A DNA stretch of 64,000 nt from contig DATJGJ010000010.1 of assembly GCA_035495115.1 (NCBI GenBank), forward strand, positions 2,407-66,406. The letters are read 5' to 3'. This stretch comes from Minisyncoccota bacterium (lineage in GTDB: Bacteria > Patescibacteriota > Minisyncoccia > Phycocordibacterales > PALSA-1337). The notes beneath the pieces were generated by a model. The model was given only the letters and a program-made list of their open reading frames with translations. It was not told the DNA's origin and did not search any database. Below are positions 6,640-63,054 of the stretch, piece by piece (positions within the stretch are counted from its first letter, which is position 1; every line of letters starts with the position of its first letter). The translations under genes and the position numbers were made by a program.

Positions 6640-8388
6640 ATGCTCATCGAAGATACCCAGCTCTATAAATTCATCCTCGACTCTGGACTCGTATCCAAAG
6701 AGGATTTGGAAAATGCCAAAAAGGAGGCAGACGATACCAGCAAGCGTCTGGGGGATATTCTCGTTACTCAAGGCAAGATCACTGCCGACAATCTCCGTCG
6801 TATGCAGGCCTATGTCCTCGGTATACCTTTCGTCGATCTCAAAAATAGAAAGCTGCCGACTGATACACTCTCTCTCATCCCTGAGCCGATCGCTCGCGGC
6901 CACAATATCGTTGCTTTCAAGAAGACCGATACTTCGCTCGAAGTTGCCATGCTCGACGTGAATGATCTTTCTGCTATCGATTTCATCAAAAAGAAAGTTC
7001 ATCTCAAGATACTCCCGCGTCTCACTGACAGTGATTCCATCAAAGAAGCGCTCGTTCAGTATCAAAAGAGCCTCAAAGCGGAATTCGGCGATATCATCCA
7101 GAAGGAGACAGATACGATCAAAATGATCTCCGAAGAAAAAGGTGAGGCAGCTACTGAAGAAGATTTGAAGAAGATTGCAGAAGATCTTCCCGTCGTCCGT
7201 ATTGTGGATACGCTCATCAAGCACGCTATTTTGCAAAATGCATCTGATATACATATAGAGCCAATGGAGGAGCAAGTACTCGTCCGTTACCGTATCGATG
7301 GCCTCCTTCATGATGCCATGGTGCTTCCGCGCCAAGCAGGACCATCAGTCTCCGCTCGTATCAAAGTGCTCTCAAATCTCAAGCTCGACGAAAAGCGTCT
7401 TCCTCAAGATGGCCGTTTCAAAGTTGATCTTACCAATGAAAAAGTTTCATTCCGCGTTTCTATCTTGCCGACATACTATGGCGAAAAGATCGTTATGCGT
7501 TTGTTGCGTGAAAACATCTCAGGTTTTACTCTCGAGTATCTCCAATTCCATGGAGAAGGCCTTGAGCGTATCCATGATGCCCTCAAGCAAACGACAGGCA
7601 TGATCCTTACGACAGGTCCGACCGGTTCCGGTAAAACCACTACGCTTTATACGATGCTCGATCTGCTCAATACACCTGATGTGAACATATCTACTATCGA
7701 AGATCCTATCGAATATCAGATGGCGCGCATCAATCAGACACAAGTGCGCCCTGAGATCGGTTTCTCTTTCTCGCAAGGCATACGTACCCTCGTTCGTCAG
7801 GATCCAGATATCATTATGGTGGGTGAGATTCGTGATAATGAGACTGCTGCGCTCGCGGTCAACGCCGCGCTCACTGGTCACCTCGTGCTTTCAACGTTGC
7901 ACACCAACTCAGCCGCTGGCGCTATTCCACGTCTTCTCGATATGAAAGTAGAAGCATTTCTCCTTGTTTCTACTCTTGATATTGTCATCGGTCAGCGTCT
8001 CGTGCGCCGTCTGACTGATTCAAAAGTCTCTTACGACCTTTCAAAAGCAGAGTTCGCGCAGCTTGAAAAGCGCGTAGACATGGATCGTGTGCTCGCGGCC
8101 CTCAAAGCCGATAAAGTCGTCAAAGCCGATGCAAAGTGGGGTGATATTCCATTCTATAAGCCAGCGCCAGGCGGCGAGGATGATGGTTTCAAGGGGCGCG
8201 TAGGCATCCATGAGATACTCAGAATGTCGCCGACAATAAAGGATCTGATCATCAAAGGCGAAACAACTTCGGTTATTGAGGATCAGGCAAAAAAAGAAGG
8301 CATGTTGACGATGTTGGAAGACGGTATATACAAATGCGCTGCAGGCATGACGACTATCGAAGAAGTATTGCGTGTCATTTCAGAATAA
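6640..8388 (+). CDS. pilB: Type IV pilus assembly ATPase PilB (GspE family)
   Basis: 582 aa. N-terminal GspII_E domain, Walker A GPTGSGKTTTLY, and Asp/His boxes. Confidence 0.9.
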   Translation: MLIEDTQLYKFILDSGLVSKEDLENAKKEADDTSKRLGDILVTQGKITADNLRRMQAYVLGIPFVDLKNRKLPTDTLSLIPEPIARGHNIVAFKKTDTSLEVAMLDVNDLSAIDFIKKKVHLKILPRLTDSDSIKEALVQYQKSLKAEFGDIIQKETDTIKMISEEKGEAATEEDLKKIAEDLPVVRIVDTLIKHAILQNASDIHIEPMEEQVLVRYRIDGLLHDAMVLPRQAGPSVSARIKVLSNLKLDEKRLPQDGRFKVDLTNEKVSFRVSILPTYYGEKIVMRLLRENISGFTLEYLQFHGEGLERIHDALKQTTGMILTTGPTGSGKTTTLYTMLDLLNTPDVNISTIEDPIEYQMARINQTQVRPEIGFSFSQGIRTLVRQDPDIIMVGEIRDNETAALAVNAALTGHLVLSTLHTNSAAGAIPRLLDMKVEAFLLVSTLDIVIGQRLVRRLTDSKVSYDLSKAEFAQLEKRVDMDRVLAALKADKVVKADAKWGDIPFYKPAPGGEDDGFKGRVGIHEILRMSPTIKDLIIKGETTSVIEDQAKKEGMLTMLEDGIYKCAAGMTTIEEVLRVISE

Positions 8389-8398
8389 ATCAAATTAT

Positions 8399-9622
8399 AT
8401 GAGCCATTTTATTTTTAAAGCACGAAAACCGGGAGGCGAAGTATATGAAGGCGAAAAAGATGTCGCTGACCGTTATGAGCTTTACCGCATTATTCGCGAG
8501 AGCGGCGATGAGTTCATTTCTTTGAAAGAAAAAAAGAAGGGAAGCGGCAAAGGCCTGCAGATAAATATCTCATTCGGCTTCATGAAACGAGTAAAGGCGA
8601 TCGATAAGATCAATTTCGCTCGAAATTTAGGATCAATGATTGAGGCGGGTTTGCCACTGTCCCGTGCTTTGTCAGTGCTCGAGCGTCAAGCACACAATAA
8701 AAATTTCAAAGAAGTCATAGTTGAAGTGCGCAATGGCATCGATAAAGGATTGAGCTTTGCTGATGCGCTCGCAAAATATCCAAAAGTATTTTCATCGCTT
8801 TTTATTTCCATGGTTCATGCGGGCGAACAGTCAGGAACGCTGTCAGATTCTCTCAAAGTCATTGCTCTCCAATTGGAAAGCGCTCATAACCTCGAAAGAC
8901 GCGTTCGTGGAGCGCTCATGTATCCATCGGTTATTATTTGCGCGATGATTATCGTGGCAATATTGATGTTCACTTTCGTTATACCGACACTGATGAAGAC
9001 ATTCGTCGATCTCAATGTGCAGCTCCCATTTACCACACAGATCATTCTCTCGATCAGTAATATCTTGCAACATTACGGCCTATTTCTACTTGTCGGTCTT
9101 GTTATTGTAGGTGTTGTATTTATGCGTTGGTCACGAACTCCTACGGGCAAAAATATCGATCATAGAGTCATGCTTTATATGCCTATTCTCGGCCCACTCG
9201 TTAAGGAGGTGAATACAGCCCGCACAGCCCGCACGCTCTCTTCGTTGCTCGGGGCAGGCGTAGATTTTGTAGAGTCAGTTTCTATCACTGCTCAGGTCAT
9301 CCAAAATGTTCATTTTCGTGCGGTTCTAGATCAAGCCGGCGAGTCCATCAAGAAAGGTGGTCTCATGTCGCAGATATTCGCTCAAAATAACAAGCTCTAT
9401 CCGATTTTTCTTTCAGAGATGATGAGTGTGGGCGAAGAAACGGGAAAGATAGGGGAGATGCTCACAGGTGTCGCGCGTTACTACGAAGACGATGTCGATC
9501 AAAAGACAAAAGATATGTCGACAGTTATCGAACCAGTCATCATGATCGTTATCGCTGCAGGCGTCGGATTCTTTGCTGTCGCCATGATCTCGCCGATGTA
9601 CTCTTTGGTGAATGCGATATAA
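8399..9622 (+). CDS. pilC: Type IV pilus platform protein PilC (GspF family)
   Basis: Two GspF repeats and three TM segments. Start taken at MSHFIFKARKPGGEVYEGE, the typical PilC N-terminus. Confidence 0.85.
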   Translation: MSHFIFKARKPGGEVYEGEKDVADRYELYRIIRESGDEFISLKEKKKGSGKGLQINISFGFMKRVKAIDKINFARNLGSMIEAGLPLSRALSVLERQAHNKNFKEVIVEVRNGIDKGLSFADALAKYPKVFSSLFISMVHAGEQSGTLSDSLKVIALQLESAHNLERRVRGALMYPSVIICAMIIVAILMFTFVIPTLMKTFVDLNVQLPFTTQIILSISNILQHYGLFLLVGLVIVGVVFMRWSRTPTGKNIDHRVMLYMPILGPLVKEVNTARTARTLSSLLGAGVDFVESVSITAQVIQNVHFRAVLDQAGESIKKGGLMSQIFAQNNKLYPIFLSEMMSVGEETGKIGEMLTGVARYYEDDVDQKTKDMSTVIEPVIMIVIAAGVGFFAVAMISPMYSLVNAI

Positions 9623-9629
9623 AGGATAT

Positions 9630-9663
9630 AAAAAATCGCTCACAATATTGTGAGCGATTTTTT
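9630..9663. terminator. Bidirectional terminator
   Basis: atcgctcaca-atat-tgtgagcgat perfect 10-bp stem flanked by A and T runs. Confidence 0.5.
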
Positions 9664-10954
9664 ATATCTCGGTCCAATCGACTATATTGTATCCGCCACC
9701 TGGGCCCGCTTGGAAAAGGGTACTCGGTAGACCGCGGTCATACGTGACATTCGCTGTGTTTGAAAGAACGATCTTGTAGCCAGTTGCTTCTTTGACACCG
9801 GCACTTTGGTTGATAGAGATTTGTCCATGTATAGCATAACCTACCAGTGCTGATGAGCTTTGACTGATGCTTATTGCATCATTAGAACCTCCATTTTCTG
9901 CGCTATTATTTTGTGAAATCATAAACACGAATGAGTTTGGAGATCCTGATCCTTGAAACGCAGTTCCGCTATTGAGCGAGATGACACTGCCTGTTGTGCG
10001 GTTCGACGGGTCATCAGCGACAATTGCTACATTTTGGCTGCCAAGGGTGGATGCCATTTGAATAGTAGAGCCAGTCTCGACTGTTATATTGCCCGTCACC
10101 CAAATCGGACCAGAAACTGTCACTGTTGAGCCTTTTATATCTAGATCGCAGGTAATTTTTTGTGCAGTTAAAGTGACGCTGGTATTTTTGATTGTATATA
10201 TGCCTGTGCAGTTATTGGTTCCTCCAGCAGCCGCATCGCTTTCCCATTGTGCGATTTGAGCATCGGTGATTGGCAAGTCTATGCTTCCTTGGTCGGGGCT
10301 ATTTGGATATTTGGTACCAGGAACATGCGAGGATGTGTAACTATCGATGGTCGCAGCACTATAGTAGTAAGCGTCCTTGCCTGAAGAAGAGTTCTGTAGT
10401 GTGTGGGCGTAGAGTGTGCCCGTTGCATTGATACCGCTGATGAGACCGGTTGGACCAGCGGAGATGACGTCGCCATTGATGGTGTTTCCTGCGCCAGTTA
10501 CTGTTCCATTTGAAAACACATTTCCTGTCACGCTTGAGCTGTTATTCAACACGAATCCTCCTTCGCCAGACTGGATGCCGTAATGAAATGAGACACCAGT
10601 GCCAAGCGTTAGGTCCATCTGGATATTTCTCTGGTACAAATCAGTTGGAGAGGTGATAGTGACTCTCTTTCCGGTGGAAGTATTCGTCACAGCTATGGTT
10701 GCTGTGCTCGAACCGAGCGTGAGATTGAATGATGGTGCGATTTGTTTGCTGTTTTTCAATCTGTACAGCGCCTCGTTCACTGCACTATCTGCCAATAGGA
10801 AGGCCTGCTTTGAGCTAATCGAGGCTTGGGTATTGGCGTAGTGCGATATGACAGGGTAGCCGATACCGTTGATGATCAAAAGTGAGATAGCGAGAAAGAG
10901 GATTGTATTCAGAATGATGACTTGACCGCGATTGTAGAGTATTTTTTTCCGCAT
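9662..10954 (-). CDS. PilX-like large pilus-associated protein (putative minor pilin or tip protein)
   Basis: 430 aa. N-terminal RGQVIILNTILFLAISLLII hydrophobic segment resembling PilX_N. Thr/Ser/Gly/Asn-rich beta-type body. Last gene of the pilin operon. Confidence 0.5.
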   Translation of the reverse strand: MRKKILYNRGQVIILNTILFLAISLLIINGIGYPVISHYANTQASISSKQAFLLADSAVNEALYRLKNSKQIAPSFNLTLGSSTATIAVTNTSTGKRVTITSPTDLYQRNIQMDLTLGTGVSFHYGIQSGEGGFVLNNSSSVTGNVFSNGTVTGAGNTINGDVISAGPTGLISGINATGTLYAHTLQNSSSGKDAYYYSAATIDSYTSSHVPGTKYPNSPDQGSIDLPITDAQIAQWESDAAAGGTNNCTGIYTIKNTSVTLTAQKITCDLDIKGSTVTVSGPIWVTGNITVETGSTIQMASTLGSQNVAIVADDPSNRTTGSVISLNSGTAFQGSGSPNSFVFMISQNNSAENGGSNDAISISQSSSALVGYAIHGQISINQSAGVKEATGYKIVLSNTANVTYDRGLPSTLFQAGPGGGYNIVDWTEI

Positions 10955-10957
10955 ATA

Positions 10958-11470
10958 TTAATATGAATTTCTCATGATAGCTGCTCCGCTGTATGTACGC
11001 GTTTGGTTCACTCCTTTAAGGTTGAAAGTAATATCTATATCAAAATGAATGGCTGTCGATATAGGCGTAGAGATATTGGTCAAATAAAATCGGCTGATCG
11101 TAACATCTGAAGGCGTGAGATATTGAATTGTACCCGAGTTCTCTTGGTAGGTGAGTCGTCCGTTGCTGATAGTATATTGTTTCGTAAGTTGAACTGAATT
11201 TGCCTGTGCACTGAGTGATAATGATCCTAGAGTCGTACCAAATGCAGTGCCTGCAGCATTCACGCTCTGGCCACTGCGGATGCTTTTAACTATATGGTCG
11301 CTTACGGTGATGCCGACGCTGTCGACATGAGACCCGACTGTGGCCGTGCGGTACCAATCATAGGTTGCCGCGAGAAGCGTCAACATGGCAACGAGCAAAA
11401 GTACAAGTCCGCCCGCATAGACAAGTGTTTCAAGCAAAGTAAAACCGCGTTGTTTAGTTATTGTAGACAT
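10958..11470 (-). CDS. Type IV pilin-like protein (prepilin N-terminal methylation motif)
   Basis: KQRGFTLLETLVYAGGLVLLL, a class III signal with the G-F-T-L-L-E motif. Confidence 0.65.
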   Translation of the reverse strand: MSTITKQRGFTLLETLVYAGGLVLLLVAMLTLLAATYDWYRTATVGSHVDSVGITVSDHIVKSIRSGQSVNAAGTAFGTTLGSLSLSAQANSVQLTKQYTISNGRLTYQENSGTIQYLTPSDVTISRFYLTNISTPISTAIHFDIDITFNLKGVNQTRTYSGAAIMRNSY

Positions 11471-11936
11471 TGTGTATGAGCATTTCAGTCCGAGCTAATG
11501 TTGTGGACGCATTCCCAGATGGAAATACGGTGATGATGACATCCCGCGTATTCGCATCAGTGGTGCCAGACGTAGAGATGTTATCGCTGCTATCACGTTT
11601 TACTGCAGAAAAAACGATTGTACGTACATAGGTATTTTGGATAGTTTGAACTGTCGTGGTTCCGCTGTACGTGCTCCCATCCCAATAAAGATAGTAGGTA
11701 GTATTGAGTGAAAGAGGAGAGATCTTTGTGGACCATCCTGTATCACGCATGATAGTGAGGGCTTCGTCGGCTTCTTCGGTGAGCAATGCCGCTTCAGCAT
11801 AACGGCTGCTCGAGTTTGCCACTTTGAGATAGAGTTGCCATGCACCAGCTATGCCTGTCACTGCCGTTGCAATGATTGCAGCGGAAACAATGATCTCAAC
11901 AACACTTAAGCCTCGTATATAACGATGCGAACTCAT
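11454..11936 (-). CDS. Type IV minor pilin-like protein
   Basis: RGLSVVEIIVSAAIIATAV, a prepilin-like G-L-S-V-V-E motif followed by a hydrophobic helix. Confidence 0.55.
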   Translation of the reverse strand: MSSHRYIRGLSVVEIIVSAAIIATAVTGIAGAWQLYLKVANSSSRYAEAALLTEEADEALTIMRDTGWSTKISPLSLNTTYYLYWDGSTYSGTTTVQTIQNTYVRTIVFSAVKRDSSDNISTSGTTDANTRDVIITVFPSGNASTTLARTEMLIHNVYNN

Positions 11937-11942
11937 ATGAGC

Positions 11943-12413
11943 TTATTGTACCACACCTATATTGCCCAAACTCTCAACAACGATATTTTTTTTGCGAGCA
12001 GGATTCGCTATTTCCATGACTGTCACTGTAGCAGTTGAGTTCGTCGCTCCGGTAAGTCGAGTAAAGACGATCGCATCATTTGGGTCAGTAATCGTATTTG
12101 TCAGAGTTGCACCTGAATCAATGGTAGTCGTAGAGTTGCTTGCGCTACTTGTGCTATACGCGCTTCCCATAAAAGTAACATATGAATCGCTATTAAATTT
12201 GACCCCGAAACTCGCGCCATTCTTGCCGGATATAGCGTTTGAGCGCGCTTGTTCCAAAGCAGAGACAATCGAATCAGTAGTTGTCGAAACTATAGCATTG
12301 CTTCTGGCGGTGTTATACCAATATGTACCAATAGACAAAAGTATGCCCGCAATAGCGATGACAAGGAGTATCTCGATGAGAGTGAAGCCTGCGGTAGTAG
12401 ATGGGCGTTGCAT
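11943..12413 (-). CDS. Type IV pilin (probable major pilin)
   Basis: MQRPSTTAGFTLIEILLVIAIAGIL, a canonical prepilin leader and GFTLIE motif. Start set at the internal ATG at 12413. Confidence 0.7.
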   Translation of the reverse strand: MQRPSTTAGFTLIEILLVIAIAGILLSIGTYWYNTARSNAIVSTTTDSIVSALEQARSNAISGKNGASFGVKFNSDSYVTFMGSAYSTSSASNSTTTIDSGATLTNTITDPNDAIVFTRLTGATNSTATVTVMEIANPARKKNIVVESLGNIGVVQ

Positions 12414-12463
12414 GGCGATAATTGTAGCACACCCTGTTCTATGGCTGTGGTACAATTATTCCC

Positions 12464-13228
12464 ATGAATAAAAAACTCATTGTCGGCAATTGGAAAATGA
12501 ATCCAGTCACGCTCGACGAAGCAAAAAAAATAGCTCGAAAAATTAAAAGGGCTTCAGCTGGCCTTGTTTCAGTTGAGACAGTCATTTGTCCTCCGTTTCC
12601 ATTCATCTATCCTTGTACGAGCAAAGGGGAGAGCGCGCTTTTCCATATCGGCGCTCAATCAGCATCAGTAGAGATCGATCGAGGTCCATTTACGGGTGAG
12701 GTGAGCGCTACGATGCTCAAAGAAATAGGTGTTTCATATGTCATTGTCGGTCATTCTGAACAACGTGCGCGAGGTGAAAGCGATAGTATAGTCTCCAAAA
12801 AAGCAAAAGCAGTGCTCGAGGCAGGTCTCTCACCGATCATTTGCGTAGGGGAGACGTCTCGTGACGAAGCTGGGACATATTTGGAAACATTGAAAAATCA
12901 GATCAAACAGAGTTTGGCTGATATACCTCCAAAATTTGCGAGCAACATTATCCTTGCATATGAGCCTGTTTGGGCTATCGGCGCTCAGGAGGCCATGAAA
13001 AACGAAGATATATACGAGTCATCGCTTTTTGTAAAAAAAATCTTCTCTGACATATTTGGACCAGAAGCTGGGGTGAAGGCGAAGGTTCTTTATGGAGGTT
13101 CAGTGAACTACCGCAATGCACCAGATATCATCGCTATCGGCAAAGTCGATGGTCTTCTCGTTGGGCGCGAAAGCGTCAATGCTCCTGGCTTCGTCGAATT
13201 ACTCAAAGCAGTTGATCTCGTAAAGTAA
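12464..13228 (+). CDS. tpiA: Triosephosphate isomerase
   Basis: MNKKLIVGNWKMN...VIVGHSEQR...AYEPVWAIG TIM signatures. Confidence 0.9.
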   Translation: MNKKLIVGNWKMNPVTLDEAKKIARKIKRASAGLVSVETVICPPFPFIYPCTSKGESALFHIGAQSASVEIDRGPFTGEVSATMLKEIGVSYVIVGHSEQRARGESDSIVSKKAKAVLEAGLSPIICVGETSRDEAGTYLETLKNQIKQSLADIPPKFASNIILAYEPVWAIGAQEAMKNEDIYESSLFVKKIFSDIFGPEAGVKAKVLYGGSVNYRNAPDIIAIGKVDGLLVGRESVNAPGFVELLKAVDLVK

Positions 13229-13229
13229 T

Positions 13230-14396
13230 ATGAAAACATTAAACGATATCCCGCATCTCTCTGGCGTCAAAGTGCTTGTGCGCGTCGATTTTAATGTACC
13301 TATTAAAAATGGCGTTATCACTGATGACTATCGTATACGCAAGGCCATCCCTACTATTGATTTTTTAAAGTCAAAAGGCGCGCGATTGGTCCTTATCAGC
13401 CATATCGAAACTGCTGAAGGTCTCGTGACAGACCAAAGCGAAGAGCCGAGTCTGATCAAAAAGCCAACACTTGCTCCAGTGGCCGAGTATTTGAAAAGGA
13501 AAGATATGCCGGTAACATTCGTCAAGAACATTTCTGCGGCTTTCGATGCGAGCGAGCAGCTCAGCGATGGAGAGATGATTCTCGTTGAGAATATCCGCGA
13601 AAATGAAGGGGAAAAAACAAATGACAAGAAGTTCGCCAAACAGCTGGCCACTCTCGCTGATATATATGTAAACGATGCTTTTTCAGTTTCACATCGCGAA
13701 CATGCGTCAGTGTGCGCCATCGCACAGTTTTTACCGAGCTATGCCGGCATCCAACTCCAAAAAGAAGTCGAGAATCTAAGTTCAGCATTCAATCCTGCTC
13801 ACCCGTTTCTTTTTGTTCTTGGCGGCGCGAAGTTCGATACCAAGCTCCCGCTCATACACAAATTCTTGGCGAGCGCTGATAAGATATTCATCGGAGGGGC
13901 TTTGGCGAATGATGCTCTCAAGGCAAAGGGGTTCAATATAGGCATGTCCAAGACCTCAAATGGGAAGATGGACATCACGCCTATCATCTCTCAACATCAG
14001 ATCATGATGCCAATTGACGTAGTTATTCAGGACCATTCAAACAAAAAGGTTGGCAACGTAAGCAATATGGATGCGATATATGATATTGGCACTGATAGTT
14101 TGGCGGAGCTCAAAGTGAAGATAAACGAAGCACGATTTATCTTATGGAATGGACCGCTCGGACTTTTTGAAAAAGGATTTATCGACGGTACGGTCAAACT
14201 CGCACAAATGATTGCGGAGAGAACTCAGGCGGGCGCAACATCTATGGTGGGCGGGGGAGATACGCTGTCGGCGATTTCGAAGCTCGGCATAGAAGATAAG
14301 TTTAGCTTTGTTTCGACAGGCGGTGGGGCGATGCTCGATTTTCTGGCACAAGGGACATTGCCTGGTATTGAAGCGTTGAAAAACAGCGATAAATAA
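13230..14396 (+). CDS. pgk: Phosphoglycerate kinase
   Basis: VLVRVDFNVP N-terminus, GGGA..MVGGGDT hinge and GGGAMLDFL C-terminus. Confidence 0.9.
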   Translation: MKTLNDIPHLSGVKVLVRVDFNVPIKNGVITDDYRIRKAIPTIDFLKSKGARLVLISHIETAEGLVTDQSEEPSLIKKPTLAPVAEYLKRKDMPVTFVKNISAAFDASEQLSDGEMILVENIRENEGEKTNDKKFAKQLATLADIYVNDAFSVSHREHASVCAIAQFLPSYAGIQLQKEVENLSSAFNPAHPFLFVLGGAKFDTKLPLIHKFLASADKIFIGGALANDALKAKGFNIGMSKTSNGKMDITPIISQHQIMMPIDVVIQDHSNKKVGNVSNMDAIYDIGTDSLAELKVKINEARFILWNGPLGLFEKGFIDGTVKLAQMIAERTQAGATSMVGGGDTLSAISKLGIEDKFSFVSTGGGAMLDFLAQGTLPGIEALKNSDK

Positions 14397-14400
14397 GATT

Positions 14401-14428
14401 AAAAACTGCTCATATGTGAGCAGTTTTT
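14401..14428. terminator. Bidirectional terminator (pgk / HIT)
   Basis: ctgctca-tatg-tgagcag stem with flanking A5/T5 runs. Confidence 0.5.
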
Positions 14429-14798
14429 ATAGTAAGCTTTTTATTTTTTGCGCATTTCCTTCAAAATCTTTTTTATCTCCGCCCGTTCCTTCAGCGGGGT
14501 AGATCCATATATGGGCATGAGGAACTTCTTCGCCGATGATCTTACTTTGGATCATCTCCTGACCAAATGCTTTTTGCTGAGCTTTTGCGATCTTGCCGGC
14601 GACCTCAAAATATGAGCCGAGCTTAGGTGCATCCCATACCCAGCGGTAATGGTCTTTCGGGATGATGAGTGTGTGCCCAGGGGAGATTGGGCGGATGTCG
14701 AGAAAAGCGAGATAGGAGTCATCTTCATAGACAATGTGTGCAGGGATTTGCTTCGCTACTATCTTGCAGAATATGCAGGTAGGATCGGTTTTATTCAT
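14427..14798 (-). CDS. HIT family (histidine triad) nucleotide hydrolase
   Basis: CIFCKI...HTLIIPKDH..., the HxHxHxx triad region. Confidence 0.85.
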   Translation of the reverse strand: MNKTDPTCIFCKIVAKQIPAHIVYEDDSYLAFLDIRPISPGHTLIIPKDHYRWVWDAPKLGSYFEVAGKIAKAQQKAFGQEMIQSKIIGEEVPHAHIWIYPAEGTGGDKKDFEGNAQKIKSLL

Positions 14799-14880
14799 GA
14801 GGTCATTTTAACATATTAAAATAGGTGCAATAAAAAAGTCTCCGCCAAAATGGTGGAGACTGTGATTGCAATGTGCAAAA

Positions 14881-15420
14881 TTAACTGGCATATACGCTTG
14901 CAAATTCGATTTCAAGGCGTTTGATAAAGAGTCTCATCTCGGGGTAGAGCAGCTCCGCTTTTTCCCGATTCGCTATAAATGCGGAAATGATTTGCGCTAT
15001 ATCATTCCCAAGCGTATGTCGGTTCATAGTCCATGTCCGCAAATTACTTCTGATGATCTCTGAGGCGAAGTTATTCCTGAAAACTTCCAAAATTATTGAC
15101 ATAATGACGTCCTTCCAAAAAATAGGCATCATTGTTTCGTTTACAAGTTCGAGCTCGGGCACGCATACAAATATTTCAGTTACAAGCCCAAGTTCAGGGG
15201 TGCCTTTTCGAATTGACCATGTCCGTTTGAAATTATCTCGACCGCCCCAGATGTTTTCCCATGTGGGAGGCAATCTGCTCGGTGAGACGATGAATATCTT
15301 GAGGGGTCTTTGTAGGAACGATTTCCAAGTATCTGGTATAAGCTCGATCGCCGCAGAGACTATTTGTGAGACATCTGCTCCACCGTAATAGGTTACATCA
15401 ATTTTTTGCATAACATTCAT
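14881..15420 (-). CDS. Hypothetical protein
   Basis: 179-aa ORF with a downstream terminator hairpin (agtctcc...ggagact at about 14826-14858). No recognisable domain. Confidence 0.4.
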   Translation of the reverse strand: MNVMQKIDVTYYGGADVSQIVSAAIELIPDTWKSFLQRPLKIFIVSPSRLPPTWENIWGGRDNFKRTWSIRKGTPELGLVTEIFVCVPELELVNETMMPIFWKDVIMSIILEVFRNNFASEIIRSNLRTWTMNRHTLGNDIAQIISAFIANREKAELLYPEMRLFIKRLEIEFASVYAS

Positions 15421-15516
15421 TTGTTGTAAATTGTTTCTTATTCTAATCCAGTTCTACCTCATTTTGCCGTTCTAGTCAACGATAGGGGTCTATGCCTACA
15501 TGCTATACTTTTTCCT

Positions 15517-17346
15517 ATGCCGTACGCTATCCGACGAACTATTTCCGCTGATGAACAATCAAAGCTCGCAGCTTTTTCTCCAGTGCTTTCGCATCTGCTC
15601 TTCCATCGCGGTTTTACTGATGTCGTCGATGCCAATGCTTTCATTTTGCCAGATTATGATCTGCACACTCACAACCCATACGTATTGAAAGATGCGGAAA
15701 AGGCAGCTCTGAGAATCATCAAAGCAATACAGAACAATGAGCGCATCACGATTTACTCAGACTATGATGCTGACGGCATTCCAGGTGCAGTTATTTGGAA
15801 TGATTTTTTTACGCGCATAGGGTTCAAGAATTTTTCTATATATATTCCACATCGTCACAACGAAGGCTTCGGTCTCAATCTCGATGCGATCGAGCAGCTT
15901 GCAGACGAAGGTGTGAAACTGCTCATCACCCTCGATTGTGGCATCACTGATGTGAAACCAGTCGCGCTTGCCGTAGAGAAGGGGATGGATGTGATCATCA
16001 CTGATCATCATGAACCGCCAGCTGTATTGCCACCCGCTTTCGCTATCATCGATCACAAGCAAAGCGACTGTCTCTATCCTGACAAAAATCTATGTGGGTC
16101 TGGAGTGGCATACAAGTTGATACAAGCGGTGATAAAGAAGGATAGAGAACAGGAAGAAGATAGAAAGAAGAAAAAAGAAGGCGCCCAAAATGATTCCTCA
16201 ATTTTGAAAAATGGCTGGAAGGACGGTCACGAAAAGTGGCTGCTCGACATGGTCGGTATCGCCACACTTTCAGATATGGTCTCACTCAAAGGAGAGAATA
16301 GAGTCTTCGCTTACTATGGTTTGAATGTGCTGCGCCAGAGCCCACGCAAAGGTTTGGTGAGGCTGCTCGAAAAATTGAAGATCCCCCAAAAGCATCTTAC
16401 CGAAGACGATATCGGTTTCATGATCACGCCGCGCATCAATGCGGCATCGCGCATGGGTTTGCCGATGGATGCATTTAGTTTGCTTTCAGCACAGACAGAT
16501 GAAGATGCGCGAACGTATGCTGATCATTTGGACGCAATCAATAATGAACGTAAAGGTGTCGTAGCCGCACTTTCAAAAGAGATAAAGAAAATATTACATG
16601 ACCGCTATGGTGCCGATGAGTCGTCGCTCCCGCACGCTATAGTTCTGGGCAATCCTGAGTGGCGCCCATCGCTCCTCGGACTTGTGGCAAATACATGTGC
16701 GGAGCAATTGAAGCGCCCTGTTTTTCTCTGGGGTCGAGATGGTGACGGCGGCATCAAAGGGTCGTGTCGCTCAGAGGGGGTGTCGAGCGTTGTCGAGATC
16801 ATGCGCGGCGTACCTGAAGGAGTCTTCATAAAGTATGGAGGACACAAACATTCTGGTGGTTTTGAGGTGAGTAAAGAGCAGGTGCATTTTTTGGATGCGC
16901 ATTTAAACGAAGCGCAGAGTAAAATCAAAAATCAAAAAGCAAAAGGAAAAAGTGAAAGTAAAAAAGAGGAAGTTCAGGTAAACGAGGGTGATGACCATGA
17001 GATGGTCGACATGGAGCTCTCGATCGATGATCTTGATTGGGCTTTGTACAATGATATTGCCAAGCTCGCGCCGTTCGGCATGGACAATCCAAAGCCGGTT
17101 TTTCTTTTCAAAAAAGTTGCGCCTGTTGCGCTCAAGATATTCGGCAAGACTAAGGAGCATGTCGAAGTCAGCTTCGCAAAATCGAATGGACAAAAGATCC
17201 CTGCGATTTCTTTTTTTGGGGCGAACGAACAATGGGTAAAAGAGTTTGTGCCGGGTAAACCAATTGATCTTGTGGCGTCTATTGAGAAGTCGTTGTTCGC
17301 AGGCAGGACTGAGCTGAGGTTAAGGATTATCGATATGCTAAAATGA
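15517..17346 (+). CDS. recJ: Single-stranded-DNA-specific exonuclease RecJ
   Basis: DHH motifs (YSDYDADGIPG, ITDHHEP), DHHA1 motif GGHKHSGGF and a C-terminal OB fold. Contains a K/E-rich low-complexity insertion (QEEDRKKKKEG). Confidence 0.85.
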   Translation: MPYAIRRTISADEQSKLAAFSPVLSHLLFHRGFTDVVDANAFILPDYDLHTHNPYVLKDAEKAALRIIKAIQNNERITIYSDYDADGIPGAVIWNDFFTRIGFKNFSIYIPHRHNEGFGLNLDAIEQLADEGVKLLITLDCGITDVKPVALAVEKGMDVIITDHHEPPAVLPPAFAIIDHKQSDCLYPDKNLCGSGVAYKLIQAVIKKDREQEEDRKKKKEGAQNDSSILKNGWKDGHEKWLLDMVGIATLSDMVSLKGENRVFAYYGLNVLRQSPRKGLVRLLEKLKIPQKHLTEDDIGFMITPRINAASRMGLPMDAFSLLSAQTDEDARTYADHLDAINNERKGVVAALSKEIKKILHDRYGADESSLPHAIVLGNPEWRPSLLGLVANTCAEQLKRPVFLWGRDGDGGIKGSCRSEGVSSVVEIMRGVPEGVFIKYGGHKHSGGFEVSKEQVHFLDAHLNEAQSKIKNQKAKGKSESKKEEVQVNEGDDHEMVDMELSIDDLDWALYNDIAKLAPFGMDNPKPVFLFKKVAPVALKIFGKTKEHVEVSFAKSNGQKIPAISFFGANEQWVKEFVPGKPIDLVASIEKSLFAGRTELRLRIIDMLK

Positions 17347-18113
17347 TACGTATAAGCAATATTATGAATAACACTGAAACAAACATAATCATCTTCACCG
17401 ATGGCTCGTCGAGAGGTAATCCTGGTCCTGGTGGATGGGGAAGCATCATCGTCGTAATAGAAAAAGGGAAAGAAACAAAGAAGGAAGAAACCTATGTTAC
17501 TGAGCTCGGAGGTGGTGACAAACATACGACAAACAACAGAATGGAGCTTACAGCTGCAGTTGAAGGTATATCACATACGCCAAAAGGCTCGCGCATCTTA
17601 CTCCACACTGACTCGTCATACGTCATCAACGGCATCACTAAATGGATCCATGGTTGGAAGAAAAATAATTGGATCACCAAAGCAAAAGAAGATGTGCTCA
17701 ACAAAGATCTCTGGATCAAGCTCGATGCATGTGCAGCAGATCGAAAAGTGGAATGGAAGTACGTCGGCGGTCACATCGGCATCCTTGGCAATGAGCGCTG
17801 CGATCACATCGCCACGGCTTTTGCCGACGGCCGACACATCAAGCTCTATAAAGGCGCACTCTCTCAATATGACCTTCCTGACATTCTCAACGTTTCACAT
17901 AATGAAGCAGATCTGAAGAAGAAAAAGTCTAGCTCATCCAAGTCGAGCGCAAAAGCATACTCGTATGTGAGCATGGTCGGCGGCATCATCGAGACACACA
18001 AGACGTGGGCAGAGTGCGAAAAGCGGGTGAAGGGCGTAAAGGGGACGCGTTACAAAAAATCCATCAGCAGAGAAGATGAAGAAAACATCATCAAAAACTT
18101 CAGCGCTTTTTGA
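17343..18113 (+). CDS. rnhA: Ribonuclease HI fused to a C-terminal hybrid-binding domain (HBD / Cauli_VI-like)
   Basis: N-terminal IIIFTDGSSRGNPG...TNNRMELTA...HTDSSYVINGIT catalytic DEDD region. C-terminal YVSMVGGIIETHKTWAECEKRVKGVKGTRYKKSISREDEE matches the HBD consensus (W-x-EC...V-x-G...KKF-x-T-x-EEA). ATGA overlap with recJ. Confidence 0.8.
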   Translation: MIRISNIMNNTETNIIIFTDGSSRGNPGPGGWGSIIVVIEKGKETKKEETYVTELGGGDKHTTNNRMELTAAVEGISHTPKGSRILLHTDSSYVINGITKWIHGWKKNNWITKAKEDVLNKDLWIKLDACAADRKVEWKYVGGHIGILGNERCDHIATAFADGRHIKLYKGALSQYDLPDILNVSHNEADLKKKKSSSSKSSAKAYSYVSMVGGIIETHKTWAECEKRVKGVKGTRYKKSISREDEENIIKNFSAF

Positions 18114-18160
18114 GAACTTTTTAAGTGAAAATTTATCTCGCGCTGATACGATGACTCTCG

Positions 18161-19561
18161 ATGAATCGAAGAGTCATTTTGTTTTGGATGATCATCATCG
18201 GTGGCGCGGCATTTCGCGTCATTGTCTCTTTGAACGTGCCTGTTCCAGAGATTGGAAATTGTTCGAAACAAGAAGTGCAAGGAGAAGGAGTCATCGCTGC
18301 GGATCCTTCATTTGCTGAGAGCGGCCAGGTGCTCGTCGTAGATGTAAAACACATTTCACAAAAAGGGTCAGTGGAAAATGAATGCCCATCTGGTATCACA
18401 ATCCGCATGAAGACAAAACTATATCCGCATTTCCATTATGGAGATGAGATTATTTTTTCGGGAAAATTATCAGCGCCATTCAATTTTAAAAGTGATACTG
18501 GTAGAGCATTTGACTATACAGGATATCTGGCAAAGGACGATATTTTCTATGAGATAAAAAGTGCACAGGTCAAAGCTGATATAAATAGTATGAATAGGGA
18601 CACGAATGTCACAAATATATCGCAGTGGATCACTTCTATTCTGTATAAAATAAAAAGAGGTTTCGTAGATAATTTGAACCAGACTCTCGGCGAGCCACAC
18701 TCTGCTCTTGCTGCTGGACTAGTTGTCGGCGAGAAAAGCGCGCTTGGAAAAGATCTGCTCAACGATTTTCGAACGGTCGGACTCATCCATATCGTCGTCC
18801 TCTCTGGATTCAATATCACTATCGTCGCTGATGCATTGCGTCGACTGCTCACTCGTCTACCCCGCGTATGGGGGATAGTCATTGGTGGCATCGGCATGAT
18901 TTTATTCGGGGTGCTTGTCGGCGGCGGTGCGACCGTCGTGCGCTCGTGCTTCATGGCGAGCATTGCACTCGGCGCAAGTATCATCCGCCGCGATTATCAT
19001 GTCGCTCGGGCGCTGCTCTTTGCTGGCTGTCTCATGCTCATACAAAACCCGCTCATCTTGTTGCACGATCCTTCATTCCAACTTTCATTTTTGGCGACGC
19101 TTGGTCTCATACTGCTTGCCACGCCTTTGGAGAGATTCTTTTATTTTATACCCGAAAAGTTTGGTATGCGTGGGATCTTTGCAGCGACATTTGCCACGCA
19201 GATATTCGTTTCACCTTTTATCCTCTATATGATGGGACAGATATCTATCATCGGTGTTGTCGCCAACATCTTGGTCCTCCCCTTGATACCGATCACTATG
19301 CTTGCAGTGTTCCTCACTGGTTCGATTGGTCTCATCTCCACATTCGTTTCACAGATCTGTGGCTGGGGCGCGCACCTACTGCTCACTTATGAGTTATTCA
19401 TCGTCGAGACATTTGCGCGAGTGCCATATGCATCCATTACATTTCCACAATTTTCTGGATGGTGGGTGGTGGGGTTTTACATTGTTTTCTTTTTGGTTAG
19501 GTTCAAAATGAATAAACCATTGACCCATTTATCGTTTTGGAGTAAGTTTTCAAATAGGTAA
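18161..19561 (+). CDS. comEC: ComEC/Rec2-like DNA internalisation channel (DUF4131 plus competence TM domain), lacking its MBL domain
   Basis: LGEPHSALAAGLVVGEKSALGKDLLNDFRTVGLIHIVVLSGFNITIVA is the conserved Competence domain motif. Multiple TM helices follow. Confidence 0.75.
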   Translation: MNRRVILFWMIIIGGAAFRVIVSLNVPVPEIGNCSKQEVQGEGVIAADPSFAESGQVLVVDVKHISQKGSVENECPSGITIRMKTKLYPHFHYGDEIIFSGKLSAPFNFKSDTGRAFDYTGYLAKDDIFYEIKSAQVKADINSMNRDTNVTNISQWITSILYKIKRGFVDNLNQTLGEPHSALAAGLVVGEKSALGKDLLNDFRTVGLIHIVVLSGFNITIVADALRRLLTRLPRVWGIVIGGIGMILFGVLVGGGATVVRSCFMASIALGASIIRRDYHVARALLFAGCLMLIQNPLILLHDPSFQLSFLATLGLILLATPLERFFYFIPEKFGMRGIFAATFATQIFVSPFILYMMGQISIIGVVANILVLPLIPITMLAVFLTGSIGLISTFVSQICGWGAHLLLTYELFIVETFARVPYASITFPQFSGWWVVGFYIVFFLVRFKMNKPLTHLSFWSKFSNR

Positions 19562-19585
19562 CAACAAGCAACTCTTTTAAAACTT

Positions 19586-20002
19586 ATGACTACTCCTTCT
19601 ACAGAAGAGGAAGCCGCTATGGCTCTCATTGCCGAGAAGCGCAAGCTGATTGATGATGGCGATGCAATCATGGCTCAACGTATTTGCGTGCGGCACCAAC
19701 TCGTCCTTGAGATTGGTGTTATCAAGAAAAAATACAACATTGCTGTTCATGATCCAGAACGTGAGGCAAATCAAATGGCTGCACTTTGTGCTGTGGCCAA
19801 CGAACATAAAACGCCGTTGTCTATTTTATTGTTTCCATTCAAGCTTATTATTCTTATGTCCCGTCGTTCACAAGGGGAACAGAATAAAAGCAGGATTATT
19901 AATAAAATTTGCTGGAATTGTGGAATTAAGACTCCTGGTGTCGAAGATGAAGCAGGTGGAGGTTTCAGGATTTGTCTCGGTTGCCGAGCTCCACTTTTTT
20001 GA
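19586..20002 (+). CDS. Chorismate mutase (AroQ class)-like domain with a C-terminal CxxC...CxxC zinc ribbon
   Basis: LIAEKRKLIDDGDAIMAQRICVRHQLVLEIGVIKKKYNIAVHDPEREANQM fits the CM_2 pattern (L..R..ID.ID..L...R..L...G..K......DP.RE). The C-terminal CWNCG...CLGC is a zinc-ribbon motif. Confidence 0.45.
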   Translation: MTTPSTEEEAAMALIAEKRKLIDDGDAIMAQRICVRHQLVLEIGVIKKKYNIAVHDPEREANQMAALCAVANEHKTPLSILLFPFKLIILMSRRSQGEQNKSRIINKICWNCGIKTPGVEDEAGGGFRICLGCRAPLF

Positions 20003-20016
20003 ATAATCTTAAACAC

Positions 20017-20049
20017 AAAACGCAGCCTCAACTTGAGACTGCGTTTTTT
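20017..20049. terminator. Bidirectional terminator
   Basis: aacgcagcctcaa...ttgagactgcgtt stem with T-run, between convergent genes. Confidence 0.4.
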
Positions 20050-20070
20050 ATGTGCGCTATTTGTCAAACC

Positions 20071-20670
20071 TTATTTCTTCGCCCTCTTAAAGTTTTCTTC
20101 GATCACTGACCAGTTAAGGTTTGCGAAATAATCTTCCACGTACTGCTTCTTTCCTGATGGCTGGTAGTCTGCGACATATGAGTGTTCCCACATATCGATT
20201 GCGAGGATCATTTCACATCCGTTTAGTTGACCCAAATGTTGCTCGTCTATCCATGATGTAAGTAGACGGTCAGCTTTCTTGTCATACCAGAGTACCATCC
20301 AACCTATGCCACGGGTTGTAGATGCAACTGATTTGAATCCATTGAGAAATTCTTCAAATGGTCCACAGTCAGATTCGATAGCTTTTTTCAATTCGCCATT
20401 TTGATCGATATCTTTCGGTCCCCCTTCGAGAGAAGAAAAATAGACTTCATGATTTCGCATACCATTGTATTCAAAACTAAGTCTGCGTCTGAGCTCGCCC
20501 AATACATATGAATTTGCCTCACGATCCTTTTTGTATTCAAGACGTTTCTCCTCAATCAAGTTCAGGTTTTTTACATAGCCAAGATAGAGATTTATGTGCT
20601 CGCCGATTGTTTTTGCAGATATACCCTTGAGCGTAGGTATTTCAAATTTTTTTGCGGTGAATTGTTTCAT
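20071..20670 (-). CDS. sodA: Fe/Mn superoxide dismutase
   Basis: Conserved DMWEHSY motif near the C-terminus (DMWEH.Y signature of Fe/Mn SODs). 199 aa. Confidence 0.9.
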   Translation of the reverse strand: MKQFTAKKFEIPTLKGISAKTIGEHINLYLGYVKNLNLIEEKRLEYKKDREANSYVLGELRRRLSFEYNGMRNHEVYFSSLEGGPKDIDQNGELKKAIESDCGPFEEFLNGFKSVASTTRGIGWMVLWYDKKADRLLTSWIDEQHLGQLNGCEMILAIDMWEHSYVADYQPSGKKQYVEDYFANLNWSVIEENFKRAKK

Positions 20671-20795
20671 ATGAGTATTGTTTATTAATAATTTGGTTTC
20701 AAATTTAGCCCTATACTTATATTAGTTTACCACTTTTCATATGTACTTGAGAACTTTTTGATTGGTTCTTTATCTTGAACGTATATGATAGCTAG

Positions 20796-21698
20796 GTGAT
20801 TTTGTTTTCAAAAGTACGGCCTACATATATTTTTGTCAGCATAGCGATCATTATTATCGTTTGCACCTATGTATGGTCGATCAGCAAGGCGCCGTCGACG
20901 TTTGAGCTGTATGTTTTCAATACCAAAGGGAAACCCTCGATCTTTATCCGTACGCCCGAGGATGAAAGGATTCTCATCAACGGGGGCGCCAATGGCGATG
21001 TAGTCCGCTATCTGACCAAAACCATTCCTTTCTATTCGAGACGGATAGATGCAGTTATCCTTACAAAAGACGATGGCAATCATGTTACGGGACTCATCGA
21101 TATCATAAATAGATACACAGTCAGATCAGTTATTATTTCAACCCTACCGACGACGAAGTTGGAGTTGGCTAGTTCAACTGATCAGATTTATGCGACATTT
21201 ATGGATACGGCACATGCGCTTGGCATCCCAGTCAAAGAAGTTAGTGGAGGAGATGAATTACATTTCACTGGATTTACCGCGAACATGCTTTTTCCGACAA
21301 ATCCAAATCAAGCCAACCACTCAACAAGTTCAAAAGATTTTACTTATTCAAAAACATCGCCGCCCGAATTGGTTTTGAAAATATCCCACGGCGTAACTTC
21401 TTTTTTGTTGGCAGGGGATAGTAGTACAAAGATTCAAAAATTCCTCGCTCAAAATCGGTCGATAAATATCCAAGCGAATGTTTTAGTTGTTCCTCATAGT
21501 GCATCAGCAAGTTCACTTTCATTGGACTTTATAAATGCAGTTCGGCCAGAATTTATTATCTATTCACAATCTAGTGCTTCTTCAAAATCAAAAAAGACAG
21601 ATCCTCTTTATATGATACTTGATGACCGTCGTTTCAATGTGCAACAAAAAAACACCGTTAAGGTGCTTTCTGACGGAGAGTCCGTGGAGATTATTTGA
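20796..21698 (+). CDS. ComEC C-terminal metallo-beta-lactamase-fold domain protein (separate ORF, degenerate metal-binding motifs). GTG start.
   Basis: N-terminal TM, then ELYVFNTKGKPSIFIRTPEDERILINGGANG, which matches the ComEC MBL domain opening (FLDVGQGDA.LI.TP.G..ILIDGG). The later LLAGDSS...VLVVPHSASASS region corresponds to LLTGD...KVPHHGS. The HxHxDH motif is replaced by TKDDGNH. Confidence 0.6.
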   Translation: MILFSKVRPTYIFVSIAIIIIVCTYVWSISKAPSTFELYVFNTKGKPSIFIRTPEDERILINGGANGDVVRYLTKTIPFYSRRIDAVILTKDDGNHVTGLIDIINRYTVRSVIISTLPTTKLELASSTDQIYATFMDTAHALGIPVKEVSGGDELHFTGFTANMLFPTNPNQANHSTSSKDFTYSKTSPPELVLKISHGVTSFLLAGDSSTKIQKFLAQNRSINIQANVLVVPHSASASSLSLDFINAVRPEFIIYSQSSASSKSKKTDPLYMILDDRRFNVQQKNTVKVLSDGESVEII

Positions 21699-24414: not shown

Positions 24415-25239
24415 GTGAAAAAATATCCATTTATAATATTTTTAGCATTTCTTATACCAACTACAACTTATGCAGTTTGGTATAATCCTGCAACATGGTT
24501 TTCTAATAGTAATCCTGACAACAATGAACTCCTGCAGAGAGTGGCTGATCTCGAAAAGAAACTGTCTGATAAAGCCGATGTTACCCCAAATGTTTCAATG
24601 GAAGTTAAGAATAGTAATAATACAAGTACAACTACTATTAGTGAAAATAGTAAGATGACATCTTTAAAAGCAGAAGTTTCATTACTAGAAAATAAATTAA
24701 ATGATTTGCAAGTCAAATATAATATATGTTCGAATCAGATAATGAAAAATGGCTCAATAAACAAAGCTGTTCCAGTGGCAGTTTCTACAGATTCAAACAT
24801 CGTTCAACTGAACAAACCTTATGATTACAAAAATTATCCAGAAATTAACATCAAGGATTATGTTAAAAGTCCGCTAAAATGGATGGGTTGGGGTGTTGAT
24901 GTTATAACAGTGAACATTGTTGATTTTATTGCTGCTGGCAATTTAGAACAGCATAACTACTTGCTGATTTCTGATGCAACGAGTGATTCTGTTATCCCTG
25001 AAAAGATGATTGTTGAAGTTGATGATCAAACAGATTGGGATAATATAACAGCTCTCAAGAAGGGTGCATTAGTAAGTGTATACGGAATAGGTGCTTCAAG
25101 TCAGAAATTTAAGATAGGCGTATCTGACTCAGACAGTACTTATTATCCAGTTATTAAGCTACAAATGCTCAGCAAGTGTACTCTTGGTGGAAACTGCGGA
25201 GCTGATTCAACTGTTTGGGTTACGGGTAGGTTTCATTAA
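24415..25239 (+). CDS. Secreted hypothetical protein (signal peptide, coiled coil, C-terminal beta-rich domain)
   Basis: N-terminal MKKYPFIIFLAFLIPTTTYA signal peptide, a coiled-coil segment (LQRVADLEKKLSDK...LENKLNDLQVKY), and an AT-rich local composition. Confidence 0.5.
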   Translation: MKKYPFIIFLAFLIPTTTYAVWYNPATWFSNSNPDNNELLQRVADLEKKLSDKADVTPNVSMEVKNSNNTSTTTISENSKMTSLKAEVSLLENKLNDLQVKYNICSNQIMKNGSINKAVPVAVSTDSNIVQLNKPYDYKNYPEINIKDYVKSPLKWMGWGVDVITVNIVDFIAAGNLEQHNYLLISDATSDSVIPEKMIVEVDDQTDWDNITALKKGALVSVYGIGASSQKFKIGVSDSDSTYYPVIKLQMLSKCTLGGNCGADSTVWVTGRFH

Positions 25240-62970: not shown

Positions 62971-63044
62971 CCGCCCTTAGCTCAGTTGGTTAGAGCACAG
63001 AGCTTATACCTCTGGGGTCCTTGGTTCGAATCCAAGAGGGCGGA
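62971..63044 (+). tRNA. tRNA-Ile with anticodon UAU (decodes AUA). CCA is not encoded.
   Basis: Manual cloverleaf: acceptor CCGCCCT/AGGGCGG, D-arm GCTC-AGTTGGTTA-GAGC, anticodon stem CAGAG/CTCTG with loop CT-TAT-AC, T-arm CTTGG-TTCGAAT-CCAAG, and discriminator A. Confidence 0.75.
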
Positions 63045-63054
63045 CAAGAAATAG

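Follow-up and report, generated by a model that had tools for sequence, protein, structure and literature searches.

A separately encoded and probably non-catalytic C-terminal domain of ComEC near pilus, recJ and rnhA genes in a Minisyncoccota bacterium

A 64-kb stretch of DNA from a Minisyncoccota bacterium (Paceibacterota, Candidate Phyla Radiation or CPR), referred to below as the window, carries type IV pilus genes, recJ, rnhA and the gene for the DNA-uptake channel ComEC within 15 kb. Genes were called from an open reading frame (ORF) listing combined with Pfam and NCBIfam scans, and all genes named in an earlier note on this DNA were recovered in place. To that note the 15 kb looked like a toolkit for taking up and digesting DNA. 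Here we concentrate on ComEC, whose channel core and C-terminal domain (CTD), the latter with a metallo-beta-lactamase (MBL) fold, are encoded by two separate genes. The features from recJ to the end of the CTD gene are:

15517-17346, + strand: recJ, cytoplasmic 5'-3' single-stranded DNA exonuclease (DHH, DHHA1, RecJ_OB)
17343-18113, + strand: rnhA, RNase HI with a C-terminal hybrid-binding domain, HBD (PF00075, RNase_H, E 1e-41; PF01693, Cauli_VI/HBD)
18161-19561, + strand: ComEC core subunit (PF03772, Competence, E 2e-49; PF13567, DUF4131, E 5e-11)
19586-20002, + strand: CM_2 (chorismate-mutase-type) ORF (PF01817, E 3.5e-10)
20071-20670, - strand: Fe/Mn superoxide dismutase (SOD), lying between the two parts of ComEC
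20796-21698, + strand: 300-aa MBL-fold ORF, the trans-encoded ComEC CTD (TIGR00361 positions 422-633)

ComEC encoded in two parts

The 466-aa ComEC core consists of an N-terminal transmembrane helix, an OB fold (DUF4131, 43 bits against a cutoff of 31.6) and the channel domain (Competence, PF03772, residues 187-447), and its C-terminus is predicted to be cytoplasmic. The polypeptide stops at residue 466, and the Pfam scan found no MBL domain in it. An ORF 1.2 kb downstream, beyond the CM_2 ORF (+) and the SOD gene (-), comprises a signal-anchor transmembrane helix followed by a predicted extracytoplasmic MBL-fold domain. When aligned to the full-length model TIGR00361 (ComEC_Rec2), the core spans positions 82-411 and the MBL ORF positions 422-633. 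The two are also contiguous on fused ComECs from metagenomes, a comparison set of 742-804-aa proteins, where they cover residues 156-509 and 517-754 of L139 (804 aa), and 219-482 and 502-773 of L120. The split point falls in a basic loop ahead of the last transmembrane helix, and this helix is carried by the MBL ORF as residues 12-30. The best PDB sequence match of the MBL ORF was the ComEC CTD structure 9ic4 (E 2e-10), which was also the best Foldseek match (E 1.3e-20) of its AlphaFold2 (AF2) model (predicted local distance difference test, pLDDT, 91.8). Together the two ORFs tile a full-length ComEC, in agreement with the earlier description of a channel ORF and a separate MBL ORF, and these matches show the two-piece ComEC to be the product of a gene fission.

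For comparative purposes, 69 species-representative loci were fetched by ComEC-core alignment and the proteins of the window were mapped on them; counts are given below as loci with the gene over loci with enough flank. The CTD ORF was present and intact in 51/53 of these loci, and all 82 of its 82 close homologues are about 300 aa long. A profile search covering 1.84 billion representatives placed the standalone CTD family in 253 clusters (50% identity, E ≤ 1e-30), the top 150 of which are all ≤396 aa. Given these uniform lengths among both close homologues and clusters, the split form is not an assembly artefact.

Compared with the full-length ComEC/Rec2 proteins of Bacillus subtilis, Moorella and Legionella pneumophila, all three domains match the same models, there is no difference in predicted topology and the fold of the CTD corresponds to 9ic4, whereas here the CTD and the last transmembrane helix form a gene of their own at a distance of 1.2 kb. 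The core ORF alone has exactly the architecture of the 'DC'-type ComEC (DUF4131 and Competence, no Lactamase_B), which is common in bacteria (PMC6299819) and near-universal in CPR (PMC6744442). Surveys treat the CTD of this type as absent, whereas the window and hundreds of Patescibacteria clusters encode it separately, usually beside the core. The ComEC literature examined, including PMC6744442, does not mention a trans-encoded CTD. About half of ComECs have no nuclease domain, and degradation of the non-transported strand in such systems is unexplained (PMC8579336).

The SOD gene separates the two ComEC parts in 55/57 related loci, and in more distant relatives the CTD directly follows the core; the SOD gene seems to have been inserted between comEC and CTD genes that were once adjacent. 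The CM_2 ORF, 24 nt past comEC, ends in a C-terminal Cys4 ribbon (CxxC...CxxC). It occurs in 2/59 related loci, as lineage-specific cargo closing the operon, and is odd in a CPR genome, where one would not expect aromatic amino acids to be synthesised. We also considered this 138-aa ORF as a detached piece of ComEC and rejected the idea, as the 600-640-aa ComEC variants bear a different extension with weak PBECR2/3 matches. That extension, of ~150 aa, C-terminal and presumably cytoplasmic, was seen in ~7/67 ComEC core orthologues of the clade (P0128, P0131, P0139, P0151, P0154, P0171; L002, 7192-9027), and its matches to PBECR2/PBECR3 (barnase/EndoU/RelE-like nuclease) had E values of about 1e-4, below cutoff.

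Metal ligands of the separate C-terminal domain

Characterised ComEC CTDs share a motif II of the form H-x-D-x-D-H, a motif IV Asp and a motif V His, and in the M. glycerini CTD each of the substitutions H598A, D602A, H603A and D700A abolishes nuclease activity (PMC12455585). The corresponding residues of the window CTD read K91-x-D93-x-N95-H96, D208 and H234. Four of the six ligand positions are kept (D93, H96, D208, H234) and the equivalents of H598 and D602 are replaced (H598->K, D602->N), a difference from full-length ComEC/Rec2 that extends across the clade as K or N at both sites. The alignment of these positions is unambiguous, since their flanks are shared with intact relatives (IDLMILTHPDTDHVTGL versus IDAVILTKDDGNHVTGL).

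Decay of the ligands is more advanced in the relatives. Among 75 family members, the first His of motif II is represented by N (29), D (13), K (12), S (10) and H (4), its second Asp by K (45), N (15) and D (9), and its last His by N (38), D (16) and H (11), while the motif IV position holds N in 32 and D in 23. Among 55 species-level relatives, none keeps more than three of the six ligands (0/6 in 10, 1/6 in 24, 2/6 in 14 and 3/6 in 7). The earlier note had called the MBL ORF nuclease-like; neither motif II H-x-D-x-D-H nor the other ligands are conserved in the clade, which does not sustain that label. At the same time, 50 positions of the CTD are ≥90% conserved, including FIRTPED-R-L, PFYSRRID and an F-x-Y-S-K-x-S-x-P-E loop that occupies the place of motif III in active domains. 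The combination of ligand loss, strong conservation and an intact ORF leads us to read the CTD as a pseudo-nuclease kept for a structural or guiding role, and the clade's CTD is probably a non-catalytic scaffold or strand-guide subunit.

The more distant standalone CTDs, also in Parcubacteria, keep all ligands, and the block tpiA-pgk-HIT-recJ-rnhA-comEC-(SOD)-CTD also occurs with intact CTDs (e.g. L106, L116, L127, L128). Since the same block and the same split form exist with an intact domain, fission appears to predate ligand loss, and by sequence the relatives can be arranged as a series: fused and active, split and intact, and split with all ligands lost. A partial parallel is offered by the ComEC of Streptococcus pneumoniae, which relies on the separate nuclease EndA and has likewise kept a CTD despite substituted metal ligands; a role in guiding the transported DNA has been proposed for it (PMC8579336). 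Unlike in S. pneumoniae, the CTD described here is encoded in trans and its degeneration goes much further; no nuclease resembling EndA or NucA was identified in the window.

The recJ unit, the pilus module and their neighbourhood

Genes recJ, rnhA and comEC are co-directional and tightly packed, rnhA starting within the recJ stop codon (ATGA, 4 nt overlap) and comEC following 47 nt after rnhA (median about 80 nt across related loci). The spacing points to a lineage-wide, operon-like unit that may be co-transcribed. In the RecJ product, the DHH and DHHA1 catalytic core and RecJ_OB all score above Pfam cutoffs, and the DYDADG and DHH motifs are readable. RNase HI scores 163.6 bits with NF001236 (cutoff 160) and retains a readable catalytic D-E-D-D set (D20, E68, D90, D154). 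As the earlier note had proposed, it carries an HBD: PF01693 covers residues 220-240 with 22.9 bits (cutoff 21), and the HBD of yeast RNase H1, 1qhk, is matched at E 0.022. The module sits at the C-terminus (about residues 205-256), not the N-terminus, and is conserved with Y, W and KK in 55 related loci. RNase H1 with an HBD is known from eukaryotes and from bacteria such as Bacillus halodurans; the protein shares with it the DEDD catalytic domain and a Cauli_VI/HBD module with conserved Tyr, Trp and Lys-Lys, but places the module after the catalytic domain, the reverse of the usual order. Searching the literature for bacterial RNases HI with the HBD at the C-terminus gave nothing specific. 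RecJ limits transformation in Vibrio, and the RecJ described here could degrade imported single-stranded DNA, while the RNase HI could be unrelated housekeeping.

The genes and terminators upstream of recJ are:

6640-8388, + strand: pilB (PF00437, T2SSE, E 1.8e-117; N-terminal PF05157, MshEN, E 4e-14)
8372-9622, + strand: pilC, GspF/PilC platform protein (PF00482, T2SSF, E 4e-54, two repeats)
9625-9668, no strand: putative intrinsic terminator acting in both directions, 20-bp stem, where the pilBC and minor-pilin operons converge
9662-10954, - strand: 430-aa tip-pilin-like ORF, GspK/PilX-type N-terminus without Glu5, then beta-solenoid
10958-11470, - strand: minor pilin A, prepilin motif G|FTLLE, weak N_methyl and ComGD matches
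11454-11936, - strand: minor pilin B, prepilin-like, motif G|LSVVE
11943-12413, - strand: minor pilin C, GspH/FimT/FimU-like, motif G|FTLIE (PF12019 E 3.4e-6, N_methyl E 2.9e-5, TIGR01708 E 1.7e-11)
12464-14396, + strand: tpiA-pgk, glycolytic genes interleaved in the block and not part of the DNA-uptake system
14400-14429, no strand: putative bidirectional terminator, 13-bp stem, between pgk and the HIT gene
14427-14798, - strand: HIT-family nucleotide hydrolase (PF01230, E 2e-17)
14881-15420, - strand: 179-aa ORF with no family match, in a variable slot between HIT and recJ

Of a type IV pilus system, both a PilB/GspE-family assembly ATPase and a PilC/GspF platform protein are present. PilB scores 502 bits with TIGR02538, under the NCBIfam equivalog cutoff, PilC scores 286-310 bits with the GspF and PilC NCBIfam models, and the two genes overlap by 17 nt. 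The three small minus-strand ORFs each combine a class III signal motif with a hydrophobic helix, and these are the sole such motifs in the whole window. Homologue alignment places the likely start of minor pilin C at the ATG at 12413, the longest ORF opening with a TTG at 12455. A FimT-type DNA-binding motif (C-terminal GRxR) was considered for this GspH-like pilin; its basic patch, ARKK, is limited to the window and its closest relatives and is not conserved across 11 GspH-like pilin homologues, and we dropped it as evidence of DNA binding. Neither a major pilin nor the prepilin peptidase PilD was identifiable among the scanned ORFs of the window, and the same holds for pilT, pilMNO, a secretin, comEA, dprA and comF, with the small ribosomal-operon ORFs scanned in part; the earlier note had likewise seen no pilT, pilM/N/O or secretin.

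The fourth gene of the pilin operon encodes a 430-aa protein with a hydrophobic N-terminus and a conserved Gly10 and without Glu5. Searches with it returned no Pfam or NCBIfam match, no hit in a PDB sequence search and no sequence-level match to PilX, GspK or ComZ, while at least 665 homologues of about 420-445 aa were found in Patescibacteria. Its AF2 model (pLDDT 83.6) consists of a 66-residue N-terminal helix (residues 2-67), a small sheet and a beta-solenoid. The previous 'PilX-like' label thus holds for the N-terminus only, the remainder having no family match and being a beta-solenoid in the model. Foldseek recovered Thermus thermophilus ComZ (6qvi, E 6.5e-4), a weak match (TM-score 0.28-0.39) that ice-binding-protein folds equal in rank. 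ComZ, a proposed tip DNA receptor (PMC6561018), resembles the modelled large subunit in pairing a pilin helix with a beta-solenoid; this resemblance has no counterpart at the sequence level. The 430-aa protein is a candidate pilus-tip adhesin or DNA receptor. Encoding one GspH-like pilin, then two small ones and finally a large subunit without Glu5, the four genes are laid out like the quartets of type IV pili and type II secretion systems (GspH-I-J-K; FimU-PilV-PilW-PilX), and the operon presumably corresponds to a tip quartet of the GspH-I-J-K type.

At 9625-9668 and 14400-14429, convergent genes are separated by long hairpins with perfect stems of 20 and 13 bp and with runs of A and T on either side; both look like bidirectional terminators. 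A consensus promoter scan returned 33 sites against 32.1 in shuffled sequence, so promoters were not defined by the scan and units were delimited with the two long-stem terminators only. The terminators part the pilus, glycolysis and recJ-comEC units from one another and, together with the alternating strands, leave no fewer than seven transcription units in the 15 kb, which speaks against the earlier toolkit reading.

Some 50-60 species-level relatives share the gene order. Besides SOD and the CTD, the genes retained in related loci include rnhA (60/63), recJ (53/56), pgk (45/48), tpiA (44/48), HIT (48/54), the M50 protease gene (45/47) and rpsL (40/43), with pilC within 10 kb in 23/38. The interspersed housekeeping genes tpiA, pgk, SOD, M50 protease, rpsL and rpsG are therefore conserved as well as the DNA-related ones. 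In a more distant comparison (25 non-fused CTD loci with a full 10-kb upstream flank), the ComEC core lies ≤3 kb from the CTD in 17/25, intact standalone CTDs sit directly downstream of a ComEC core in many loci, recJ lies upstream in 6 of those 17, and pilB/pilC fall within 10 kb in 1/25. The neighbourhood is kept no better than the housekeeping genes scattered through it, and its pilus linkage is lost in distant relatives. Judged by gene order, the robust functional linkage appears to be that of the ComEC core to its CTD, and the proximity of the type IV pilus genes to comEC appears positional.

Several loci and genes depart from this layout. L032 has no recJ or rnhA near comEC, and L038 and L040 have no recJ, rnhA or CTD; these three of the 69 loci may be rearranged genomes or a second arrangement. 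The 179-aa ORF at 14881-15420 is not conserved (one 25% match among related loci), and in L001 the same slot between HIT and recJ holds a protein with a Bac_DnaA_C domain and another ORF of no known family. Elsewhere in the window, the ribosomal operon has an insertion between the genes of ribosomal proteins L5 and L6 (43037-46103, +), consisting of a 622-aa Pif1-like helicase with an HTH_40 tail and a 384-aa ORF of no known function, and a tRNA-Ile with the anticodon UAU, uncommon in bacteria, is found at 62971-63045 (+). Two large ORFs without Pfam matches occur at the elongation factor genes of the str operon, one of 621 aa (29255-31120, +) between EF-G and EF-Tu and one of 274 aa (24415-25239, +) just upstream of EF-G; L074 has a PKD-domain protein in the slot equivalent to these large EF-G/EF-Tu-region ORFs.

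Readings of the locus

We consider it moderately probable, on the sequence comparisons, that the locus, a stretch of chromosome conserved throughout the clade, holds parts of a Gram-positive-style competence apparatus with a two-subunit ComEC, the CTD being non-catalytic, interleaved with housekeeping genes. Type IV pili acting with ComEC are the accepted and already published model of DNA uptake for CPR (PMC6744442), and comEC-dependent natural transformation has been shown in Saccharibacteria (PMC10633639). In such an apparatus, pilB-pilC and the convergent four-gene minor and tip pilin operon would build and prime a type IV pilus, whose tip would bind either DNA or a host surface. Double-stranded DNA captured at the surface would be bound by the OB fold of ComEC, and one strand would be threaded through the channel. 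The CTD, together with the last transmembrane helix, would be made as a separate 300-aa protein from its own promoter region and would dock on the ComEC core, where it would serve as scaffold or strand guide and would not degrade the non-transported strand; disposal of that strand would fall to another enzyme or to simple displacement. The genes recJ, rnhA and comEC would act as an operon-like unit, and the imported single strand would then meet cytoplasmic RecJ or recombination proteins, a setting in which RecJ and RNase HI would have their putative roles.

A number of observations weigh against this interpretation. Among scanned ORFs the window is without pilT, pilD, a major pilin, comEA, dprA and comF; the pilus genes sit in transcription units apart from comEC; and housekeeping genes are linked to comEC more firmly than the pilus genes are (pilC 23/38 versus tpiA 44/48 and rpsL 40/43). 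RecJ and RNase HI have general tasks in repair and replication. The window CTD, with 4/6 ligands, keeps the most in its clade and may have weak residual single-metal activity. Finally, intact standalone CTDs occur with no ComEC within 10 kb in 8/25 distant loci, which means that the partnership of core and CTD is not obligatory at the level of gene order.

Some of these points would also fit conserved housekeeping synteny with no functional coupling, a possible though clearly less probable explanation in which gene order is frozen around the str/S10 ribosomal region, the pilus is used for host attachment or motility, RecJ and RNase HI work in replication and repair, and ComEC with its CTD is an independent competence channel. 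It would account for tpiA, pgk, SOD, M50, rpsL and rpsG being kept at least as well as the pilus genes, for the seven or more transcription units with two strong bidirectional terminators, and for the distant relatives, where recJ lies upstream of comEC in 6/17 and pilus genes are near in 1/25; it also fits the finding that the type IV pilus of Saccharibacteria is essential independently of comEC (PMC10633639). It is harder to reconcile with the operon-like recJ-rnhA-comEC spacing, which persists where the CTD is intact (L103, L106, L116, L125, L127, L128), and with a ComEC-CTD linkage that outlasts changes of context. The least probable of the proposals considered is that the 300-aa MBL protein has left the ComEC system and become a membrane-anchored binding protein with another partner, lying near comEC through M50-rpsL-rpsG synteny. 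The 8/25 intact standalone loci without a nearby ComEC, several of which keep M50-S12-S7 downstream, favour such a departure, as does the much faster evolution of the CTD compared with the core (identity 32-64% versus 53-87%). However, its nearest relatives in sequence and fold are ComEC CTDs, it retains a homologue of the last transmembrane helix of ComEC, and it lies beside a ComEC core in 17/25 distant loci and 51/53 clade loci.

The feeding toolkit of the earlier note, in which the pilus captures DNA, the MBL protein acts as nuclease, ComEC imports, and RecJ and RNase HI digest the DNA to nucleotides, is in our view unlikely. Much of its basis stands: the components are real, ComEC is split, recJ-rnhA-comEC is packed and the pilus-ComEC uptake model is published. 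As a rule, CPR bacteria do not make their own nucleotides, and it has been proposed that they scavenge DNA (PMC6744442); recJ and comEC are read in the same direction, and HIT and NDK-type nucleotide enzymes lie nearby. It is the digestion step that is weakened by ligand loss, which is clade-wide and affects positions at which single substitutions abolish activity in a characterised CTD (PMC12455585); moreover, the substrates of RNase HI are RNA:DNA hybrids, not imported DNA. comEC was not among the fitness genes of the one CPR organism tested (PMC10633639), which counts against nucleotide scavenging through ComEC as an obligatory process. We regard as rather doubtful a variant that accepts a two-subunit ComEC with a conserved pseudo-nuclease, but has recJ co-transcription couple the channel exit to the exonuclease in a nucleotide-salvage pipeline with the ComZ-like pilin as DNA receptor; were it true, DNA would be imported without ComEC-catalysed degradation of the second strand in a large clade of Paceibacteria. 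Published competence and a CTD that has lost its ligands together favour a competence apparatus with a two-piece ComEC over a toolkit for uptake and digestion.

The neighbourhood is largely ordinary for its clade, and the modestly novel element is the widespread, trans-encoded ComEC CTD together with its catalytic decay in this lineage. The series from fused through split-intact to split-dead forms would provide a means to separate the catalytic from the structural functions of the CTD, and the case is a warning that domain names alone do not make CPR competence genes a device for feeding on digested DNA. For Parcubacteria-type CPR, these findings show that the nuclease domain of ComEC is not missing but encoded in trans, usually beside the channel gene.

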